NCBI GenBank assembly: GCA_963663405.2
Contig: CAXXSM010000166.1
Span: 1 to 23,668, forward strand
DNA from: a bacterium
GTDB taxonomy: Bacteria > Hinthialibacterota > Hinthialibacteria > Hinthialibacterales > Hinthialibacteraceae
Reading direction: 5' to 3'
DNA: 23,668 nt
Below, piece by piece: positions 896 to 20,344 of the stretch. Under the pieces are notes generated by a model. That model was not told the DNA's origin, made no database searches, and was given only the letters and a program-made list of their open reading frames with translations. The position numbers and the translations under genes were made by a program. Every line of letters begins with the position of its first letter. Within the stretch, counting starts at the first letter, position 1.

Positions 896-1085
896 ATTGT
901 TATCAATTCGGGGCATTACTCAAACTTATGAATTGAATTTACATATTTTATGTATACACTTACATCTTAGTTTTATCAAGTATTACTAACTATTATTAAA
1001 CGAATTGACTTACTTTTGATCGATTACTTTTTGCTGAGGCATGATAAATGGTTTGAGTTCATTTCATATGGAAAAGAGGTATTAC

Positions 1086-2630
1086 ATGTATTTATTCATT
1101 CGTTTAAATGTGTTTTGGATAATGGTTATAGTAATAATGAGCGCGTTCCCTGTGATGGCTCAGATCGAACAAGAGCCTGTCGCCGCCGGTCCGGAAGCAG
1201 CGGAATTGAGCCCATCACCGGCGACATCAATTTATGGTTTGAAAACGGCGGTGGAAGCCGGTATTGGCGGCCGGATTGTGATACGCTGAGCAACGGCGCC
1301 GCGATCGTACTGGGTGGGATGCGGAAAGCGCCCTACGCGAAACACACCCAGGATTCTGAAAACGCACGGGACATGATAGCGATTCTCTCTCCATCGGGAG
1401 AAATTCTCGATCCGGCGCGTTGCGCCTTTTTTACCAACGCAGGTGAACCGTGGGAGAATACAATATGTTCATCCAGAAACGATGATAAGTTTTACGGTTT
1501 GTGCGCGGACACTGTGGGAGGCCGGTCGGGAGAACAATATGTGGTTCATACGATCGCCAATCCCGATCAATGGCCAGAGGCGTTTCCCGGTTATGCGAAA
1601 GAGCCACTATTACGAATACCATACTGCAATACAAGTGATCAGCAATGATGGAATTCCCCAAACACCGCTTATCAATCCCTATGGCGATTATGTTTCTGAA
1701 AGTGGACTGCTTCGTGGAGGAACCGTTAGATTTCTTTCCAATGGTAATATCGTTGTCATTTACGAAGATCGGCAGTCTGGCCAGAAGAAAAAAGAACTCT
1801 ATGGTAGAACACAGCCTGGACAAATTGTCGGAGCCGTGATTATAGGGCCTGATGGGAGCATTGTGAAAGAGCCATTCGCAGTATGCAGTGATAGTCCAAA
1901 CGGTTCATCGAATCGCTTTGGACTCGCGTCTGGGACGGGCTGGTTCGCAGTACGGTATCAAGATGGAGTAACCGGTCCAACTATAGTGGCGTTCGACAAC
2001 GACGGGAACGAGTTGGGAGATGGTTCGGGACGACTTTTCCCCGCCATCGATATTCCAGAATTGGGCGGCGATGGTGGGAACCGTGGAGATCCAAACGGCT
2101 TGGAAGCGGTGAACGATATTCTCTACGTTACTCATAGGGGAATCGATCGCGCTGGGTATCTGACAACGATCCATGTGAGCGGCGAAGGATTGTCTATGAT
2201 TCGGACAATACGCTTTACTGATCTTTCTTGGAGCACGTTCGAGCATAACGCGGATTTGGGCGTTGATTCCGCCGGCAATGTTATTGTAATGTGGCAGGAT
2301 CAAGCTTGGGAGCGATTCCAAACCGGAAGGTGGGAAGTCTTGGCTCGTTTATTCGACGCGAACCTCGAACCGCTGACGTCCTCCTTCTGCCTCTTTGAAA
2401 TCGGTAACAACACGAATATTGATAAAATCGATCCGATCCTTGGTCCGGGGAGAACAAAACAATCCCGTATCGCTATGGACGATGAGATCATCATCGCCAT
2501 CGCCGAAACGAACAATGTTCCGTATGGCGATCCATCTTCCGCTGGTGAAGAGATGTATACCTATACCTATATTGCGCGGATGCTGAAAAATCCTGTGAAG
2601 ACACCCGTTTCTATTTGGGAGGTGTATTGA
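1086..2630 (+). pseudogene. Secreted protein of unknown family (~514 aa when repaired, beta-rich or propeller-like), split by two frameshifts; real pseudogene or sequencing error
   Basis: SD AAGAGGT 1074-1080 and ATG 1086. The signal peptide MYLFIRLNVFWIMVIVIMSAFPVMA-Q lies in ORF 1041..1289. The protein continues after ~1200 in the frame of ORF 1016..1648 (GIEPITGDINLWF...) and after ~1600 in ORF 1443..2630 (KSHYYEYH...). It ends KTPVSIWEVY*. Confidence 0.75.
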
Positions 2631-3864: not shown

Positions 3865-6800
3865 ATGCGCTCTTACTTTACAAAAAACACGCTTGTCCAC
3901 GTTTTGTACATCGCCATTCTCGGATCGATTCTTTTCTCCTGTTCTTCTTTTTCCGTTCCGGCGCAGATCATCCTGCGGGAAATCCCTTGGATGGAAGAGA
4001 TCGGTACGATTGAGGATTATGTTTCCCTATCGGTAGAAGACTCCAGCCGGGCGGATTTGTTGCGAACCTCAAAGTATTTAGCGCCTGCCTCTGACGATCC
4101 TGATTTACTGCCAACTGTATATCAAAATGTCAATTTGAATCGCCTTCATATTGAATTTATGGTTAATGAATTTCCAGACCGGTTTGGAGGGCTGACAGCG
4201 GATGAGTACATGGATCTAGTTTATATACCCGAGACTCGCGCTTATTTTGCCGGCGCGCTGTTTCAGTTTCGCGATATGAATAACAATATTGTTTATGGTT
4301 TCAATATCTATGCTTCTTCCGATAAACCAGCGGATCCAGAAGAGGTGAAAATTCTTTACCACCGCCTATCCCAAAGCATGAAACTGCGCCCTTTCGCCTA
4401 TTCACCCATAATGCCCGCCAATGTCGAACAAGCCAGGAGATGGGAAAATCCAGGATTTCCCATTTACCTGCCCGAAGGATTGATTGAACCTGAATACGAA
4501 GCCTATTCACCGCAAACGAACTACGGTCGTGTGCGCTTGCTTTCACTCGCGCAACTGGATAAAGCGCTTCAGAATGGATCAATCGGCTGGCAGGATATCG
4601 TCGTGATCGACGCCGCTCCCACGGATATTGAAACGGTTGTGGCTGGGATTATCACAGGTTCCCGTCAGGGTGAACTGTCCCACATCAATGTACGTTCGAT
4701 ACGCAGGGGAACTCCGAATGCGTATATCCAGAATCCACACGTGATTTTTAATACCTATCAAGATGAACTCATCAAACTCACTCTGACACCTGATTCCTAT
4801 GAGATCACTTATCCAGTTGAAATAGAAGAAGCGGAGAATTGGTGGGATCAACACCGCCCTCAATTAGCTGCGCTGCCCCAACCGGACGATGAGTTTACAC
4901 TATTAAGTTCTTTGCCTGAAATGACTGAATCCATGACATCCAAAGAACTAATCATGCGCTATGGAGGAAAAGCGGCCCAGTTGGCCATTTTGTATTCCGT
5001 TTTCGCCGTAGGGATCGTGGAAGGAACTGAGATTCCATACTTGGTCGATGGATACGCGATTCCTTTCCATTACTATACAGAATTCATGCGATCCAACCAG
5101 ATACCCCATCCTGCGGATTCCTCCCTATCCATCACATATGAAGAATACATCCATGTTCTATTAGAAGACCAGCGATTCCGAAGCGATGCGGCGTACCGTC
5201 GAAAATGTCTGAATGATTTTATAGAATACGCCTGTGAAAATGGGACAATCAATCCCATCTTGCTGAATGATATCACGATAAAAACAATTGATGTTTTTGG
5301 TGACGCTTCTGTGAAAGTTCGATTTCGCTCTTCTTCCAATGCTGAAGACGATATCGAATTCAACGGCGCTGGGCTTTATGATTCCACTTCCGTTTGCCTA
5401 TTGGATAACCTGGATAACGATGAAGAAGGGCCATCGATCTGCGATCCAGATAAGAAGAAGGAACGTACAATCGAACGTGGACTTAAAACAGTATGGATGA
5501 GTTTATGGAATCCCAAAGCCTTTGAAGAACGAGAGTACTATCAAATCGGCCACCAGAACGCCCGTATGGGGATTTTAGTAACACGGGCGTTTCCGGCCGA
5601 GGATTGCAATGGTGTGGCTTTCACAGGCGATCCCGTCTCAGGATCCAAGGATTATTACCTTATCAACGTACAAAAAGGAGATGATAGCGTTGTACAGCCA
5701 GGGACAGGCGTCATTCCCGAAAAAGATATTATTTACATTGAGAATGGCTCTGTCACCGGGATCAACCGTGTTCGAAGTTCGTCACTCACTGCGGATCAGG
5801 AATGGGTGCTGAGTGACGCGCAATTGAACGAATTGGCCTCCGTTCTTACAAAAATCGAACAGGAAATGCCGGTTGAGGATCAGGAATACAGACGCGATCA
5901 AATCATCTTCGATATTGAATTTAAATATGACAATGGGCGATTAGTGATTAAGCAAATCCGTCCCACTCTCATTACATCCAATGAGGAGCCTCCCCTTCCC
6001 TCAGGGAAAGTGACTCTCAGTATTCCAGCCGACGCTTGTATGGTGGGTATATACAAATTCGCAACCACCCTTCAAGAAGAATATGAAACACTCTCGATGG
6101 TTCATTTCATTTCGGGCGACTATTCCTTGCCTGTACAAACCGGTCAATATGAATTGGAGATTGTTGATCAACTCGAATTCGGTCCCAATAAAACAATCGC
6201 GGTCTCAGCGGCGCCGGGTAAACTACTCGTCGAAGAAGTTAAAATCCCCGGTGAGAGGACTGTTCATCGCTATCAATATGAAAAAACATTTCATATTGTT
6301 GATCAAGCAGAACGAGATCTACTGTTTACAATGCAGGGAATACAAAGAAATATCGACACACAATCCAACGTTCATGTCACATTCGACAACCAAACGATCA
6401 TCCATCAACTCTCTACGACCGGATATCTTGGCGGCCCTCAATCGGAAACAGTCATCAACTACAGCGCGGTCACAGACGATCTGGCCCAGATCTATCGCCA
6501 CCGGCTTATTCTAGAAGATGGACAAAGCATTGAACTGTACGAACTGATCACCCGGCGGATTATGATGATGGGAATCGCATACGCCGATTTCACCTGCGCC
6601 GATGTGAAACTGAAGGAAGCCGCATTCCGGCAGGAGGATTATTGGAAATTGGTTTATACAGCGATGGGACATTGTTGGAATGCCAAGTTTCGTCTGATCT
6701 TTGATGAACCTTTGGGCGATATCTATGGTCTGGATATGCTGACAACAACTCTCCAGTGGGGACTTGATACCGAAGCGGAGGCTTATTGGCTGGATAGCAA

Positions 6801-6903
6801 TCTTAATCATATGCGAAAGATCAATATCCTTGAATATAGCAGGATCGAAGTTGAAGAAATTCCCGAACCTACAACGGATGTGACTTCGTGGCTCTTTTTT
6901 TAA
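3865..6903 (+). CDS. Exported PEP/pyruvate-binding (PPDK_N, ATP-grasp) domain dikinase-like protein with a phospho-His-type motif and an unknown C-terminal domain
   Basis: 1012 aa with AGGTG at 3851-3855 and an N-terminal hydrophobic signal. PPDK_N motifs: YGGKAAQL, FRSSSNAEDDIEFNGAGLYDS, VWMSLWNPKA, MGILV, NGVAFT, DIEF...KQIRP. His motif AGIITGSRQGELSHINVR (His273, nt 4681). Ends PTTDVTSWLFF*. Confidence 0.88.
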   Translation: MRSYFTKNTLVHVLYIAILGSILFSCSSFSVPAQIILREIPWMEEIGTIEDYVSLSVEDSSRADLLRTSKYLAPASDDPDLLPTVYQNVNLNRLHIEFMVNEFPDRFGGLTADEYMDLVYIPETRAYFAGALFQFRDMNNNIVYGFNIYASSDKPADPEEVKILYHRLSQSMKLRPFAYSPIMPANVEQARRWENPGFPIYLPEGLIEPEYEAYSPQTNYGRVRLLSLAQLDKALQNGSIGWQDIVVIDAAPTDIETVVAGIITGSRQGELSHINVRSIRRGTPNAYIQNPHVIFNTYQDELIKLTLTPDSYEITYPVEIEEAENWWDQHRPQLAALPQPDDEFTLLSSLPEMTESMTSKELIMRYGGKAAQLAILYSVFAVGIVEGTEIPYLVDGYAIPFHYYTEFMRSNQIPHPADSSLSITYEEYIHVLLEDQRFRSDAAYRRKCLNDFIEYACENGTINPILLNDITIKTIDVFGDASVKVRFRSSSNAEDDIEFNGAGLYDSTSVCLLDNLDNDEEGPSICDPDKKKERTIERGLKTVWMSLWNPKAFEEREYYQIGHQNARMGILVTRAFPAEDCNGVAFTGDPVSGSKDYYLINVQKGDDSVVQPGTGVIPEKDIIYIENGSVTGINRVRSSSLTADQEWVLSDAQLNELASVLTKIEQEMPVEDQEYRRDQIIFDIEFKYDNGRLVIKQIRPTLITSNEEPPLPSGKVTLSIPADACMVGIYKFATTLQEEYETLSMVHFISGDYSLPVQTGQYELEIVDQLEFGPNKTIAVSAAPGKLLVEEVKIPGERTVHRYQYEKTFHIVDQAERDLLFTMQGIQRNIDTQSNVHVTFDNQTIIHQLSTTGYLGGPQSETVINYSAVTDDLAQIYRHRLILEDGQSIELYELITRRIMMMGIAYADFTCADVKLKEAAFRQEDYWKLVYTAMGHCWNAKFRLIFDEPLGDIYGLDMLTTTLQWGLDTEAEAYWLDSNLNHMRKINILEYSRIEVEEIPEPTTDVTSWLFF

Positions 6904-7875: not shown

Positions 7876-7925
7876 TTCCACAACCGTTATTACAAAAAAG
7901 TTTTTATGAAAATGGCGGTTGGATT
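7876..7925. repeat. Dispersed ~50 bp imperfect hairpin repeat, copy 1
   Basis: ATGAAAATGGCGGTTGGATT at 7906-7925 is identical to 20516-20535 and the upstream halves are similar. The arms TCCA..ACCGTTATT and AATGGCGGT.TGGA can pair. Confidence 0.7.
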
Positions 7926-8274
7926 AATCACTGGTTAAGAGCTAATTGCTCATCGTAAAAACCTTCCGGAAATAAAGCGCCTTTTGATTGTTGTATGCGT
8001 GTAGACCAACCACAAGATTCTTGAATGCATTTGTATGTTCCATCGTTTTTCTTACATCAATATTCATGAATCGGATTTATACAAACATCTGGTCAACGAT
8101 CATTTTTTGATTTTTCTATAGCCTGACTGTCAATCACACTTAATTGAGCAATTTACCCAGTCATAATCTTTCCTTTAAGACTCGATTTTGAGTTGATAGG
8201 ACAACAAGACTATCACAAATCCATAATATTCGTACAATGTGATAAATCCAGAATCGGATAGTAAAGGAGGCTGC

Positions 8275-8400
8275 GTGCAAAAGAAGGATATCATTCAACT
8301 CGTCGCAAAAAGGATGCGGCAAGTCGAGCAATCGATTAAGATAAATTACATTGAATCAGACCAGTCTAGAACACTAAACCAAAAGGAGAATCAACAGTGA
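8275..8400 (+). CDS. Possible 41 aa small ORF or gene remnant coupled to the MFS pseudogene
   Basis: Strong SD AAGGAGG at 8264-8270 and GTG 8275, giving MQKKDIIQLVAKRMRQVEQSIKINYIESDQSRTLNQKENQQ*. The stop overlaps the MFS start in GTGA. Confidence 0.35.
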   Translation: MQKKDIIQLVAKRMRQVEQSIKINYIESDQSRTLNQKENQQ

Positions 8401-9169
8401 TAGAATTATCATCAAAACAGATCGTATAGCGTTATCGCATTTTTGCACTTACCTGGCTTGGATATGCGGGATTTTATCGATGTCGAAAAAATTTAGCGGT
8501 TATCGCGCCTGAATTAAAATAAATGGGGATGACCGATTTTCAATATGCTCACATCATTTTCTTTTATAGTTTAATGTATTGTATCCCAAATCGTTGGTGT
8601 GGACCATTGCGATTATGTACTTTTTCTTGAAACTGACGCGGTATGCTTTTCTTTTATAATTGCCGATGTACATGACTGAACATTTAGGATATAGTGGACA
8701 AGAAGCAGGATATACCTCTTCCATTTACGAATTGATCAGTTTTGCGGGAGCGCTGACAGCGGGATTATTTATCGGATAAAAAGTTTCAATCTCGCCGTTT
8801 TCCTATTGGCGCATTGTTTTTATGGGATTTAGGAATTAGTTTTCTCATTCATCCCACGATCGCGCAATGGAGTCATCTGGCCAATGCCATAGGCATTAGT
8901 TTTTTTGCTTTTTAACCTATGGTCCGGATACTTTGATGACTGGCGCGGCCGCTCAAGATGAAGGATCGCAACGTGGCGCCGCTACAACTGCTGGTTTTAT
9001 GAATGGAGTAGGATCAATTGGACAAATGGTTTCCGGCTACGTTATCGCCAATGTGAAATTATATTATGGATGGGATGCGGTCTTTTTCCTATTTGTCATT
9101 TTCGCTTTTCTGAGTGGGACGTTATTGGCTACGAAATGGAACCATGTTACTAACGCAGAAGAGAACTAA
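8397..9169 (+). pseudogene. MFS transporter, organophosphate:Pi antiporter (GlpT/UhpC-like) family, pseudogene
   Basis: AGGAG followed by GTG 8397. Reads V*RYRIFALTWLGYAGFYRCRKNLAV (OPA TM1 signature), then YFFLKLTRYAFLL*LPMY, then YGPDTLMTGAAAQD..GFMNGVGSIGQ. At least three in-frame stops, frameshifts and a large internal deletion near 8585 (about 770 bp remain of a typical ~1.3 kb gene). Confidence 0.85.
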
Positions 9170-9191
9170 TAATGCGATGTGGATAATGATG

Positions 9192-15983: not shown

Positions 15984-17213
15984 TTAGGATTTTGGACGGG
16001 GGAAGCCCGGATTTTGATTCCAGGCCCCCTTTTGCTGTCCAAAACAAATATCATCAAAGGTTAATTGTAAGTCTTCTGGAGGTTTTGGCGGGATTTGAAA
16101 CGGATCGTTTATCCATTTCATTAAATCCCTGTAGGTAAACAAATTTAGACGAAGAAAAGCCACCAGATTGGAGAGTGACCAATCCCATTGGGAACGGAAT
16201 TGGAGTATCTTCAAAATCAAAATGGGAATCAAGGCGGTCCAAATTTGAATCTTCAAAGCATTCGCCGACGTGCCGACAAAGGTTTTCACTTTCAGGTTTT
16301 GCTTTAATAGTTTGAAGAAGATTTCTATTTGCCAGCGTTCCTTGTAGATGGCCGCGATAGTACGGGCGGCGAATTCGTGGTGATTGGTCAACAAGTCGAT
16401 CATCCGTTTATTTTCTTCATCCCAAACCCGTACCAATCGGAACGTCATGCCGGAGCAGACTTCTTGCGCACGATTCGAGGTGAAACGGATCGTATAATCG
16501 CCCCGTAGATTCGAATCCCCTGGGACCACTCGGCGGCTGATCAACTGATACTTCAAATTCTCTTTGAGCCGGGTGACAAAATACACGCCCCGGTCGGTCC
16601 ATTGCCGAAACAATTCGAAATCGACATAGGCGCGATCCATGGCCACGATCGAGCCCGCGGCCAGATGAAGCAATCGGGCGATTGTGATATCGTGTTGTTT
16701 TCCCTCACCAATGTAGGCGTAGGCGGGCAGATACCCGTCGTGATCCAGGAGCAGGTGAAGTTTGACCGCCCCCTTGGTGCGCCGAAACTTCGCCCAATCG
16801 AACAGAGACGCGCACAAGTCAATGACGGACAAATCCAGGCTGTCGAGTTTGTTCTTGAAGCGGAATTTACGTTTCCCCTGAAATTCCAACTGCGCTTGGC
16901 GCAAAAGCGTGTAAAAGAGAGCCTGGAACATTTCCCAGGAACGATGTTGATTCGCATAGGCGAGAGTTGAGCGCTTGGGGGCGTTTTTGATACCGAGATG
17001 GGTTAATTTCCCTACACATGTGGCCAATCCCCCGCAGATTTCTCGCAAGGATTTCGCTTGGCCAAGTTGGCAAAACAACATGGCTACCAATTGCTCCCAG
17101 CATGAAAAATTCTTCGCATAGCGATTCCCGGAATACGTGTCCACGATGCGGGCGAATTCAAAACGAGGTATAAAGGCTAGGATTTGCGAAAAAAGACTGG
17201 CACAATAAGTCAT
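15984..17213 (-). CDS. IS4-family DDE transposase (DUF4372 + DDE_Tnp_1)
   Basis: SLFSQIL, QLVAMLFCQL..SLREI, VKLHLLLD, MDRAY, YKERWQIEIFFK (YREK motif). The start is more likely ATG 17213, preceded by GGAGGT, than 17249 as in the ORF track. Confidence 0.93.
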   Translation of the reverse strand: MTYCASLFSQILAFIPRFEFARIVDTYSGNRYAKNFSCWEQLVAMLFCQLGQAKSLREICGGLATCVGKLTHLGIKNAPKRSTLAYANQHRSWEMFQALFYTLLRQAQLEFQGKRKFRFKNKLDSLDLSVIDLCASLFDWAKFRRTKGAVKLHLLLDHDGYLPAYAYIGEGKQHDITIARLLHLAAGSIVAMDRAYVDFELFRQWTDRGVYFVTRLKENLKYQLISRRVVPGDSNLRGDYTIRFTSNRAQEVCSGMTFRLVRVWDEENKRMIDLLTNHHEFAARTIAAIYKERWQIEIFFKLLKQNLKVKTFVGTSANALKIQIWTALIPILILKILQFRSQWDWSLSNLVAFLRLNLFTYRDLMKWINDPFQIPPKPPEDLQLTFDDICFGQQKGAWNQNPGFPRPKS

Positions 17214-17276
17214 ATCGGACACCTCCAGCATGGATTGGATATTTCGCAACTATACAATACCATGCGGGTGTCCGAT
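17214..17276 (-). promoter_or_regulatory. Hairpin overlapping the transposase ribosome-binding site
   Basis: ATCGGACACC 17214-17223 pairs with GGTGTCCGAT 17267-17276, and GCATGG 17228-17233 pairs with CCATGC 17260-17265. The stem covers part of the SD and abuts the ATG. Confidence 0.6.
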
Positions 17277-17371: not shown

Positions 17372-20344
17372 TCACTCTGCCAGTTCAGGAAACGATTGAA
17401 CGGCTATGGCCCAATCGGAACAATATGGCGCGCGCCAATTGTATCGTTTCATTTCGAATGTTCCTATATCGATTTCCACATTTTCTTTCTTCGTGTCTAC
17501 GGCTATGGCGGTCATTGGTTGAGAGAGATCAGTAAAATCCATTTTCAGGTGTGTACAATCTTCTTTATAAAATAAGAATAATGAATGATTTGAATGCTTT
17601 AAACAAAAACCGTCTGTGCGTGAATTATCTTCTACCATATCTTTGAAAAATCGATTTGTAAAAAAAACAGCGTAGGTTTTCATCCATTCAGGATGAGGGT
17701 AAGGAGCCGATCCACCCGCACCAGAACCTTCATTCAAAAGATTTCCCCAAATATTGGCTACTCCGCCGGCCATGGTTGAGTGCCACAGTCCACGGCGAGT
17801 CATTTCTTCGTCATAATCTTTATCGGGATATCGTGAAGGCCAGCGGATGCGAAATCGGTCTTCGGAAAAAGCCGGCTTAGAAGGCCTGTGTTTAAGCGCG
17901 GCGAGATAAACCTCATAGGTGGGGCGATGATGCTCATAACTCGCGTAATCCAGGCCATCATAGATGGTTTGATTGGAATGATCGGTACCTTTGCGAGGGC
18001 CTCCCGGACGGCCCCCGAGTAAATGCTCCCATCCAAATTGTTGATGCATAAACGAGTGCCACTCCCTCAGATCATCTTCGGAAACCCACTCGAATAAGTC
18101 AAATCCATACCCCATTGTCCAGCCCGGAAGGGGGCCTAATCGTGCGGCGATGTAACGTTGCAGCCGTTTATCGGCAGGACCATTCTTCCCCCATCGGACT
18201 GGTGTCATATGCCGTTGTTCATCACCCCATGCCCATAGATGAATGAATCCTCCAGCGGTGTGTACAGAAGTGATCAATTGTTCGAGCGCTTCAAAGGTTT
18301 TCAAATCGGGATTTGGATCATCACTATCAATGTCATCGTATTTCGTTTGATTCCAATCAAACCAGCGGCATAACACGCTCGTGTGAAATCCATTAAATCC
18401 GTGATGGACCAAAAATGTTTGAATGTCTTTTTGTATTTTCCCCGGATTGTTCGAAAAAGCGGGAAGATCGTCGTACATCACGAGTTGGGGAACGAATGCT
18501 TCATTTGTCCCCATCCATCCCCATTTATTTGCAAAATGAGTGACAAAGCCATGGATTCTTGGATTCGGATGAGGATTGACAATAACTTTACCAACAATCC
18601 CATCAAGACCGGATTCTTCACTGCGGGTTTGAAATGTCCATAAACCGGTTTTTACACCGGTGAACCGGAACGCCCATTTCCCATTGCCAGTATAAAACAT
18701 GCCGGTTGTACGCGTCTCTCCGTTGGGGTGAGAAAAGATTACATGAGCGTTTACATCAAATGGATTGTCCGCTTTCGATGAATGGGGAATCGTCCATTCC
18801 ACATAAGGAGACCATTGGGTGACAGTTCGATTTAAGCGTGTATCGGTCCCGTCGACAGTGATGGTTTGGTTCGCTGAAATATTTTGATGAACGGCTGTCG
18901 ATCCATCCAAGAATTTTACAACGATATCAACCGTTTTACATGCGCCTAATCCAAAGTGCAAGACTGGATCATTTTGACCAAGGTAACCGTTATTGCTGCG
19001 AGATTCCCGCATGCCCAGGATTACGTTTCCGATACGTCCGGAGGGATAGACAAACGTTTTGGCGCCAAAAGCGCCGTTTTGATTTTGAGGGGAATTCAAT
19101 CGGACCTTCAACCAGTTCCCCTGGTTGTAATCGTTCCGCACGAGCCAGTTCACCGACCGTTTCGCGCCGATCGCGAAATCGGGATCCCCATCGTTATCAA
19201 TATCCGCAAAGGCGATTCCACGTGGGTCGTTGATCCCAGATACTGGTATTGGGGAGCCGGCTGAAAACGTTCCAGTACCATCATTGATGTACATTTTGCG
19301 ATCTCCGGCAAACACCAGATCCTGATCCCCGTCGTTATATAAGTCGCTGAATCCCCCCATGTAACCTGCTGTGTCTGTAAACGATTGATGATGTAGAAAC
19401 GTTCCATTGCCTTGATTGATGTACAATGCCCCGTAGTCATCGCCCGCAAGCAGTAAATCCAGATCGCCATCGTTATCAACGTCGGCTGAAGTAATTCCAT
19501 CGTGGGCCAAGTGATGAATTCCCAAATCGGCCGGTGGAATAAGAGTAAATTGGCCGATCCCATCATTTTGTAGAATATTAACAGGGCCTGTTCGGTTGGC
19601 GGCGATAAGATCAATATCGCCGTCTCCATCAAAATCAGTATCCGTGGCGCCCTGACCAGCGGGACAGGTATTCCAATCTCCCGCATTGAAGGAAGTAAAT
19701 GTCAGTTTTCCTTCATTTCGGTAGATTTCATTTTGTTCGCCATGTGGATCGTTTGTCCCTTGATAATTGGTGACGCTGAATAGATCTAAATCACCATCAT
19801 TATCCATATCGAAAGCGAGCGCTCCGCGTGTCGGCCAACGGCGATCGAGTGATAGTCCGCTATCCCATGTAACCTCAGTAAAATTCCTGTTTCCATTATT
19901 GCGGAATATATTGTTGTGTGACGGATATTCCGGAGTGTCCCACGTCGTTCCGTTAAATACATCGTAATCACCATCATTATCCAGATCCGCAAACACAGTA
20001 CCGTGAGACCCACCATCGAAATCGTCAATCCCACGTTTTTTCCCCTCTTCAGCAAAAATACAATCACCCTTGTTGTGGAAAAATAATTCTGGCATGGGAT
20101 CGTTGAAGATCATGGTGATGCAGAGATCAGGTAAAGAATCCCCATCGATATCGGCGAACATAACGCCATGCCCACCCGTTAAATCAGATGGCCCACCGGT
20201 TCCCGCGGACTTTGTCATATTAGTAAAAGACGATTCCGCATTAACGATAGAGCCGGGGGTCAATACAAACCCGATTACGACAGACATAGCTGTATAAAGG
20301 GATAAGAAACATTTTAGATTGTTATATTGGCAAGGTGAAAACAC
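17372..20344 (-). CDS. Secreted fusion protein: FG-GAP/VCBS repeats + ASPIC/UnbV (CRTAC1-like) + DUF5060 + glycoside hydrolase-like TIM barrel
   Basis: Signal-like N-terminus (IVNA-E). Repeated DxDxDGDxD motifs. ASPIC motif GYLGQNDPVLHFGLG. DUF5060-like NPFDV..FSHPNG..GMFYTGNGKWAFRF. DUF4038-like RYIAARLG and RRGLWHSTMAGG. Start codon uncertain. Confidence 0.85.
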   Translation of the reverse strand: MFSPCQYNNLKCFLSLYTAMSVVIGFVLTPGSIVNAESSFTNMTKSAGTGGPSDLTGGHGVMFADIDGDSLPDLCITMIFNDPMPELFFHNKGDCIFAEEGKKRGIDDFDGGSHGTVFADLDNDGDYDVFNGTTWDTPEYPSHNNIFRNNGNRNFTEVTWDSGLSLDRRWPTRGALAFDMDNDGDLDLFSVTNYQGTNDPHGEQNEIYRNEGKLTFTSFNAGDWNTCPAGQGATDTDFDGDGDIDLIAANRTGPVNILQNDGIGQFTLIPPADLGIHHLAHDGITSADVDNDGDLDLLLAGDDYGALYINQGNGTFLHHQSFTDTAGYMGGFSDLYNDGDQDLVFAGDRKMYINDGTGTFSAGSPIPVSGINDPRGIAFADIDNDGDPDFAIGAKRSVNWLVRNDYNQGNWLKVRLNSPQNQNGAFGAKTFVYPSGRIGNVILGMRESRSNNGYLGQNDPVLHFGLGACKTVDIVVKFLDGSTAVHQNISANQTITVDGTDTRLNRTVTQWSPYVEWTIPHSSKADNPFDVNAHVIFSHPNGETRTTGMFYTGNGKWAFRFTGVKTGLWTFQTRSEESGLDGIVGKVIVNPHPNPRIHGFVTHFANKWGWMGTNEAFVPQLVMYDDLPAFSNNPGKIQKDIQTFLVHHGFNGFHTSVLCRWFDWNQTKYDDIDSDDPNPDLKTFEALEQLITSVHTAGGFIHLWAWGDEQRHMTPVRWGKNGPADKRLQRYIAARLGPLPGWTMGYGFDLFEWVSEDDLREWHSFMHQQFGWEHLLGGRPGGPRKGTDHSNQTIYDGLDYASYEHHRPTYEVYLAALKHRPSKPAFSEDRFRIRWPSRYPDKDYDEEMTRRGLWHSTMAGGVANIWGNLLNEGSGAGGSAPYPHPEWMKTYAVFFTNRFFKDMVEDNSRTDGFCLKHSNHSLFLFYKEDCTHLKMDFTDLSQPMTAIAVDTKKENVEIDIGTFEMKRYNWRAPYCSDWAIAVQSFPELAE

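Follow-up and report, generated by a model that had tools for sequence, protein, structure and literature searches.

The window analyzed here is the whole of the 23,668-nucleotide (23.7-kb) contig CAXXSM010000166.1, part of an 8.44-Mb, 82%-complete metagenome-assembled genome (MAG) assigned to the Hinthialibacterota, and the gene in question is an intact open reading frame (ORF) at 3865..6903 on the forward strand, whose translation gives a protein of 1012 amino acids (aa). An earlier note on this DNA had listed a leader, a histidine motif, a PPDK_N region, an unmatched domain and a tryptophan-bearing tail as the parts of the protein; all of these are present in the ORF product, and most of what the note proposed holds. 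We delineate, all on the forward strand, a putative export leader (3865..3963, aa 1-33, read from the sequence and a model helix), an alpha/beta N-domain (3976..4485, aa 38-207, from model and conservation), a swivelling phosphohistidine-type domain (4486..4854, aa 208-330, from structural matches) and an ATP-grasp nucleotide-binding domain (4891..5994, aa 343-710). The ATP-grasp is followed by an optional, beta-rich C-domain (5995..6864, aa 711-1000, from the predicted model) and by a C-terminal Trp tail, PTTDVTSWLFF-COOH (6871..6900), recognized from a genome-wide tail pattern. We read this protein, with modest confidence, as a Sec-exported multidomain phosphotransferase of the phosphoenolpyruvate (PEP)-utilizing dikinase superfamily, composed of an acceptor domain, a His swivel domain, an ATP-grasp and the optional C-domain. 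What is new is the architecture and the location within this superfamily; to our knowledge, dikinases with a swivelling phosphohistidine are cytoplasmic or plastid enzymes.

Conservation and fold of the catalytic modules

PPDK_N is the sole Pfam domain of the ORF product (aa 366-707, nucleotides [nt] 4960-5985, E 3.7e-21, 76.2 bits against a cut-off of 27), in agreement with the PPDK_N/ATP-grasp span of nt ~4960-5964 given in the earlier note. Conservation was assessed in two alignments of homologs, one of 27 sequences (31-59% identity) and one of 90 sequences (32-59% identity). Pfam found only PPDK_N (27/27) and Dockerin_1 (5/27) in the smaller set. In the larger set G367, K369, R488, S489, S490, E494, A502, and G503 are invariant (90/90), and D495, D683, E685, Q697, and R699 are at least 90% conserved. 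The GGK (K369), RSS..ED..AG, D683/E685, and Q697/R699 motifs align with the canonical PEP synthase motifs from relatives, and we take them to be nucleotide and Mg ligands, as in PPDK and PEPS. The set of ATP-binding residues is thus full, as had been claimed, and not degenerate.

Structure models were calculated with AlphaFold2 from the 90-sequence alignment, both for the whole protein (mean pLDDT 89.9, pTM 0.66) and for aa 38-345 (pLDDT 95.0, pTM 0.84), and were compared with solved structures using VIA-align 2, from which all Z scores below are taken, and Foldseek. The ATP-grasp matches residues 1-319 of the rifampin phosphotransferase (RPH) chain 5hv1_A with a Z score of 29.4 (rmsd 2.4, 297 aligned residues, 20% identity; Foldseek E 2.2e-16), followed by HpeI (9goj; Z 22.0, Foldseek E 1.1e-10) and by maize PPDK (Z 16.1).

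One feature sets the ATP-grasp of this family apart from the aligned PEP synthases, which lack it: an insert of ~19 aa of the form C-x2-D-x-L-D-x-D-x2-G-P-S-x-C, with two conserved Cys and an acidic run between them (CLLDNLDNDEEGPSIC, C511...C526, 5395..5442). Both C511 and C526 are invariant in the 27 aligned homologs and at least 90% conserved among the 90. The loop would be disulfide-stapled and perhaps Ca-binding, as is typical of extracytoplasmic proteins.

The proposed phosphocarrier histidine lies upstream of the ATP-grasp, in the motif AGIITGSRQGELSHINVRSIRRGTP, as residue 273 (codon CAC, 4681..4683), and is assigned from its invariance, its position in the secondary structure (DSSP) and weak profile alignments. 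The conservation of His273 that the earlier note expected was found throughout, in 27/27 and 90/90 aligned homologs, and the flanking T264, Q268, R281, P284, and N285 are likewise invariant in 90/90. As they are invariant in 90 homologs at 32-59% identity, neither the His motif nor the ATP-grasp motifs are chance occurrences. In the DSSP assignment of the models, His273 opens a short helix (273-281) after the strand GIIT and a loop.

Comparison of this region with swivel domains, which the note had proposed as a check, returned fold matches of several kinds. With the model of aa 38-345 as query, VIA-align 2 matched model residues 171-292 to RPH (5hv1_A; Z 11.5, rmsd 2.6, 103 aligned residues, 21% identity), to phosphotransferase system enzyme I (2wqd; Z 10.3), to the PEP-utilizer-like C-domain of Geobacillus pyruvate kinase (2e28; Z 10.1), to the PPDK phosphoryl carrier domain (2fm4; Z 8.0), and to residues 397-518 of maize PPDK (Z 7.5). 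Foldseek with the same model gave five matches at E <= 0.001, every one of them RPH-Lm (RPH E 7.2e-5). These matches support a predicted swivelling phosphohistidine-type fold for aa 208-330.

The same conservation bears on whether the protein turns over ATP at all, since it might instead be a noncatalytic module, a nucleotide sensor or binding protein built on a dikinase scaffold. An extracellular site is hard to square with ATP turnover, and catalysis is here argued by analogy, which leaves some room for such a role. Among the 90 sequences, however, which range down to 32% identity, the catalytic His and all the nucleotide and Mg motifs show either no variation or a conservation of at least 90%; an active enzyme would be expected to look like this, and we consider a pseudoenzyme very unlikely.

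The N-domain is found in all family members and is modeled with a pLDDT of ~95 (model of aa 38-345). Its conserved residues are K70, P74, Q87, N88, H95, F98, F103, Y115, R125, Y127, G130, G145, F146, E160, Y179, P181, and W193. The isolated region matched no Pfam family (E <= 10) and no PDB sequence, and in the ESM Atlas it matched one unnamed cluster only (0.79). Because it stands directly before the His domain, like the central domain of the glucan water dikinase GWD1, we infer by analogy that it holds the acceptor-substrate site.

The C-domain is modeled as all beta, with pLDDT mostly above 85, and its presence is variable: it is missing in forms of ~720-780 aa, and in some Polyangiaceae loci a homolog of it sits N-terminal of the core. 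Most homologs share the motif DYWxLVYxAxHHN, which reads GHCWN here and in the nearest relatives. Structural matches of the whole model in this region were weak (AttH-like 2ich, Z 7.6 over aa 871-998; 5hal, Z 7.5), and the isolated domain had no Pfam family above cut-off, with only subthreshold phage-tail matches at E <= 10.

The database names of homologs are only "hypothetical" or "PEP/pyruvate-binding domain-containing protein," and the latter would suggest an ordinary cytoplasmic PEP synthase or PPDK. The PPDK_N matches agree with such an identity, as do weak NCBIfam matches: the PEP synthase, PigC/RedH, and RPH models cover only aa ~459-705 and all score far under their cut-offs, with PEP synthase the best (42.7 bits against 598) and the RPH models at 13.9-16.6 bits against 999-1700. 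Against it stands the lack of a pyruvate-binding TIM barrel, already claimed from the sequence and borne out here, as PEP-utilizers_C (PF02896) had no match in the ORF product (Pfam, E <= 1) or in the 27 homologs. The domain order is moreover reversed, family members have leaders and extracellular fusion partners (see below), and canonical PPDK, PEPS, and enzyme I genes are encoded separately in the genome. On the grounds of its architecture a cytoplasmic PEP synthase is excluded, and we hold this identity to be extremely improbable.

In the libraries compared, in which no GWD sequence and no GWD His- or ATP-domain structure appeared, the closest solved relatives of the modeled catalytic domains appear to be RPH, HpeI, and PEP synthase/PPDK. 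Both catalytic modules find their closest structural counterpart in RPH-Lm (5hv1, 5fbt), and the compact ATP-grasp is common to the two proteins. The order of parts differs, with RPH having the ATP-grasp (residues 1-319) first, then the rifampin-binding domain, then a C-terminal His domain, whereas here the His domain comes first; unlike RPH, the present protein has a leader, the Cys-loop insert, and unrelated N- and C-domains. RPH is a cytoplasmic enzyme. HpeI (9goj) is a chain of 330 residues, and it is the ATP-grasp that matches it. With PEP synthase and PPDK the protein shares the PPDK_N ATP-grasp motifs, the swivelling His carrier fold (Z 7.5-8.0) and, presumably, the three-step dikinase chemistry. 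It departs from them in its missing TIM barrel, its leading His domain, and its putative export, and sequence similarity to them is confined to the ATP-grasp.

The His-before-ATP-grasp order had been claimed as typical of glucan water dikinases, and part of that claim had been an LSH[VIL]xVR His motif; our literature search did not find the LSHVxVR motif of GWD in print. GWD1 and the phosphoglucan water dikinase (PWD) share with our protein the same core order of acceptor domain, His domain, and ATP domain, with the His at the start of a short exposed helix. The order claimed is indeed that reported for potato GWD1, in which a central domain precedes the His domain and the one that binds ATP (PMC13553574), and according to the same source the layout around GWD1 His992, with strand, loop, and His at the helix start, is common to the His domains of LmRPH and FtPPDK. 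The two differ in scale, as the central domain of GWD1 has 440 aa (aa 483-926; PMC13553574) and only ~170 aa (38-207) precede the His domain here. GWD1 also has two CBM45 modules, whereas no CBM was found among the Pfam matches, for which the coverage of CBM45 by Pfam is uncertain.

Export features, fusion partners and the Trp tail

The N-terminus consists of a basic n-region, MRSYFTK, and a hydrophobic core; the model places a helix at aa 9-25, followed by a linker with pLDDT below 50 at aa 28-37. Homologs lacking signal peptides would have counted against the earlier note, but leaders are common among them: N-termini are hydrophobic in 27/27 aligned homologs, and a crude leader test was passed by 96 of the 120 listed homologs, the misses including fragments and short obvious leaders. 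At genomic loci, 28 of 41 longest-ORF calls passed the same test.

The earlier note had left undecided whether the leader ends at a signal peptidase I site or at a lipobox. Both are discernible in the sequence, with Cys26 lying within LFSC and VPA-Q at aa 31-34, a possible signal peptidase I site at 33/34. Among the near homologs of this clade the leader Cys is not conserved, and several share the A-Q site; for these reasons we would sooner expect cleavage by signal peptidase I than lipidation in this clade, which upholds the first option and leaves the lipobox doubtful. A lipoprotein anchor was rejected for this clade on the same absence of a conserved Cys. Myxococcota-type forms do carry clear lipoboxes. 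Tat export of a preloaded, folded enzyme was also considered and rejected, as the leaders contain no conserved twin-arginine motif.

Additional Pfam domains were found in 30 of the 120 listed homologs, namely Lcl_C (14), FG-GAP/VCBS (9), dockerin (4, one of them with BNR), LTD (2), and CHAT (1). Lcl has been described as an adhesin that binds glycosaminoglycans outside the cell (PMC11162425). The Planctomycetota forms end in a dockerin-like segment, which the family profile matches to cellulosomal dockerins; compared with PDB sequences, this profile had matches only to ATP-grasps and dockerins. A single conserved core to which different lineages attach their own sorting or anchoring modules argues strongly for an action of this core outside the cytoplasm. 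Taken together, the leaders, the invariant Cys pair, the fusion modules, and the Trp tail described below point to an exported enzyme family.

In the present lineage the Trp tail stands where the Planctomycetota forms have the dockerin segment. The protein ends in ...TTDVTSWLFF, the near homologs P0002-P0023 end alike, and the tail consensus is T-[SPA]-V-x-[DN]-W-x-L-Y-COOH. A W-x-[LVIMF]-[YFHN] end was found in 152 of the 12,670 genome ORFs of at least 100 aa, compared with 8 for a control offset 30 aa upstream. The window itself contains the tail twice, at 6871-6900 and at 2601-2627. Leader-like N-termini were found in 102 of the 152 tail-bearing ORFs; for comparison, they occur in 1660 of the 5045 ORFs that reach 200 aa or more. 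Twenty tail-bearing proteins, spread by length over 117 candidates, were searched with Pfam, and half of them had matches (CBM9 in four, LRR in three, FG-GAP in two, and CotH with LTD in one), with none in the other 10. Unlike known C-terminal sorting signals, the Trp tail has no transmembrane segment. One possible reading of the tail is an as yet undescribed signal by which this lineage sorts or anchors its proteins.

CotH-type kinases with LTD provide a parallel in location only: they use ATP, have leaders, and in this genome bear the Trp tail, so that the same question of an ATP source arises for them. They have a protein-kinase-like fold and are unrelated in fold and chemistry to the dikinases. 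One such kinase with LTD, at L126 of the source genome, carries the same Trp tail as our protein, and another (L030:11493-15212, reverse strand) adjoins a family member in a Planctomycetia MAG.

Distribution of the family and the proposed reaction

The family is large. When 7999 candidates from a word-indexed search were scored, 1252 proteins reached E <= 0.001, the best match apart from the protein itself being 60% identical. An exhaustive HMMER search in which only aa 38-345 served as the query returned 696 clusters (at 50% identity) at E <= 0.001, 352 at <= 1e-10, and 180 at <= 1e-30, with the N-domain and His domain always matched as a single stretch; many of the matched proteins are ~1800 aa long, and some reach giant sizes of 2600-6400 aa. 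In a scan of one genome per species, at least 563 of 593 pattern-matching stretches were confirmed. Of 41 genomes, namely the source genome and its relatives, 19 contain a match at E <= 1e-20, in most cases as a single full-length copy.

Family members occur in records labeled Omnitrophota, Planctomycetota, Myxococcota (Polyangia and Nannocystis), Chloroflexota, and Kiritimatiellae. A single 9.18-Mb Planctomycetota chromosome holds 16 of the 77 loci kept (L013-L015, L017, L020, L022-L025, L029, L031, L036, L039-L041, and L051). Most of the loci on this chromosome encode ~1800-aa proteins and some are in tandem; in several of the proteins, DCNxNG repeats rich in Cys and Asp come after an N-terminal leader.

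Secreted proteins are common near the 28 other loci whose surroundings were compared, and include FG-GAP/dockerin proteins, CotH with LTD, subtilases, a sulfatase, BNR proteins, a rhamnogalacturonan lyase, and a phosphodiester glycosidase. Our literature search found no paper on an exported dikinase family, and on dikinases with dockerin in Planctomycetes it yielded only two Omnitrophota preprints, which mention PPDK-like domains or an unrelated dikinase. One of them (bioRxiv 10.1101/2023.11.21.568195) describes PPDK-like domains from giant proteins of Omnitrophota and interprets these as pyruvate/PEP enzymes; its supplements may list domains of this kind.

The data show the architecture, the two catalytic folds, the conservation, and the export signals; how the enzyme would work, what its N-domain does, and which acceptor and ATP source it uses are proposals, the mechanism being drawn by analogy with PPDK, PEPS, RPH, and GWD. 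On this scheme the ATP-grasp (aa 343-710) would bind Mg-ATP, and His273 on the swivelling domain (aa 208-330) would attack the beta-phosphate, with AMP released and the gamma-phosphate passed to water or phosphate. The phosphorylated His domain would then swing to the N-domain (aa 38-207) and pass its phosphoryl group to an acceptor hydroxyl held there. The C-domain, or dockerin, FG-GAP, Lcl_C, or LTD in other lineages, would act as an anchoring or targeting module for the enzyme outside the cytoplasm.

Our leading guess for the acceptor, suggested by the fusion partners and the lineages concerned, is a polymer outside the cell or on its surface, for example a glycan. A wider and more speculative proposal, rather unlikely in its full form, is that bacteria from several phyla of glycan degraders or predators release dikinases, or expose them on their surface, to phosphorylate insoluble polymers outside the cell (polysaccharide, cell wall, or matrix), loosening or tagging them as GWD does starch granules. 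ATP would then leak from lysed neighbors or prey, and swappable N-terminal, C-terminal, and anchoring modules, together with as many as 16 paralogous loci in a genome, would make for differing target specificities.

The solved relatives could be taken to suggest a different class of acceptor. RPH-Lm (Z 29.4 and 11.5 for the two modules) and HpeI (Z 22.0) are the closest of them, and an N-domain of ~170 aa would suit a small ligand; the protein might thus be a small-molecule phosphotransferase like RPH, HpeI, and the phenol and steroid dikinases, modifying, in the periplasm or extracellularly, a compound such as an antibiotic, a phenolic, or a lipid-like molecule and thereby inactivating or activating it. 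We think this unlikely, since the domain order of RPH is the opposite one, surface or polymer targets accord better with the adhesin-like and anchoring fusions and with the 16 loci of a single Planctomycetota chromosome, and the problem of ATP is unchanged.

That problem would disappear if the protein were an effector acting on prey or host cells, using the ATP of the target or of its lysate to phosphorylate a target or to deplete the ATP itself. The family does occur in lineages that include predators, namely Myxococcota and Omnitrophota, the latter as described in the preprint that notes PPDK-like domains in giant Omnitrophota proteins (bioRxiv 10.1101/2023.11.21.568195). No conserved immunity-like or secretion-system neighbor was seen at the 28 loci, however, and the dockerin, FG-GAP, and lipoprotein anchors suggest that the protein stays on the surface of its producer, so that we consider an effector function distinctly improbable.

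Returning to the exported phosphotransferase that we favor, several observations weigh against it. ATP is scarce outside cells and is not known to be available in the periplasm or beyond, and no ATP source is encoded nearby. The His domain is not recognized by sequence profiles: the PEP-utilizers family (PF00391) found no match in the isolated His region (E <= 10) or in the 27 homologs, and a genome-wide scan for it misses the contig. Profile comparison (hhalign) with PF00391-type domains of relatives was not significant (E 0.052, 0.037, and 0.79; probability <= 1.4%); His273 was aligned with the catalytic S-H His of these domains in 3/3 comparisons, without significance. The equation of His273 with that catalytic His, residue for residue, therefore draws on weak alignments and secondary-structure register and can only be tentative. 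To the N-domain neither a fold nor a ligand could be assigned, and no structural match confined to it was found among the best 50 listed (lowest Z 4.6), in a comparison in which it was modeled together with the His domain. The crude leader test was failed by 24 of the 120 listed homologs. Lastly, no recurrent neighbor was found among 112 flanking ORFs at the 28 other loci, and the gene context therefore gives no substrate.

An exported dikinase family, if true, would imply ATP-driven phosphorylation outside the cytoplasm, or an unrecognized supply or replacement of ATP there. Should the acceptors be polymers, the reaction would constitute a new enzymatic step in extracellular polymer turnover and the family a possible source of polysaccharide-phosphorylating enzymes. 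As a soluble set of domains with one invariant His, the family offers a testable case, and it draws attention to a second subject, the Trp tail as a possible sorting tag of this lineage.

Neighboring genes and other features of the window

Directly upstream of the enzyme and on the same strand lies a gene for a leader-bearing protein of 352 aa, P0122 (2637..3695), which by sequence identity is a stand-alone paralog of the C-domain (32% identity to aa 710-1010, E 7e-41). Its best match is the C-domain of the enzyme of another lineage (49% identity). P0122 retains HHNWNE, which is altered in the fused C-domain, and its tail, VSIDSWVQY, resembles the Trp tail. P0121 and P0122 had no Pfam match at E <= 10, and the ESM Atlas gave no usable match for P0122. 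A complex prediction for P0122 with the C-domain of the enzyme scored 0.00, which is no answer and speaks neither for nor against binding.

Leader-bearing, stand-alone homologs of the C-domain were found in five relatives (G005, G016, G017, G020, and G031); two further cases (G019 and G022) are possibly contig-end fragments. No such homolog turned up in the 22 genomes that lack the enzyme, a set in which kin are not independent. A clear stand-alone copy is present in 4 of 6 genomes whose fused C-domain has the HC variant, against 1 of 4 with HHN, numbers too small to interpret.

Further upstream, a gene for another Trp-tail protein (1016..2630, forward strand) is apparently split by a frameshift, as seen by comparison with its homolog at L009, an intact, leader-bearing protein of 522 aa encoded directly upstream of the dikinase on that contig. 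The two frames, 1016-1648 and 1443-2630 on the forward strand, match aa 48-181 of the L009 homolog (75%) and its remainder (72%), respectively, and no Pfam family was found in the product. The split gene may be a pseudogene or an assembly error.

Promoter and terminator scans of the window gave no signal above shuffled sequences, and Rfam had no match anywhere in it. On the reverse strand, 17372-20344 encodes a 990-aa FG-GAP/ASPIC-UnbV/DUF5060 protein, likely a secreted repeat protein, and the adjoining gene (15984-17249, reverse strand) encodes a DDE transposase with DUF4372. Downstream of the enzyme, 7884-9190 is a 1.3-kb AT-rich stretch (GC 0.35-0.38) with no ORF of at least 100 aa and no Rfam match. 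A short ORF at 8933-9169 (78 aa) resembles, by eye, the hydrophobic C-terminal end of a membrane transporter.

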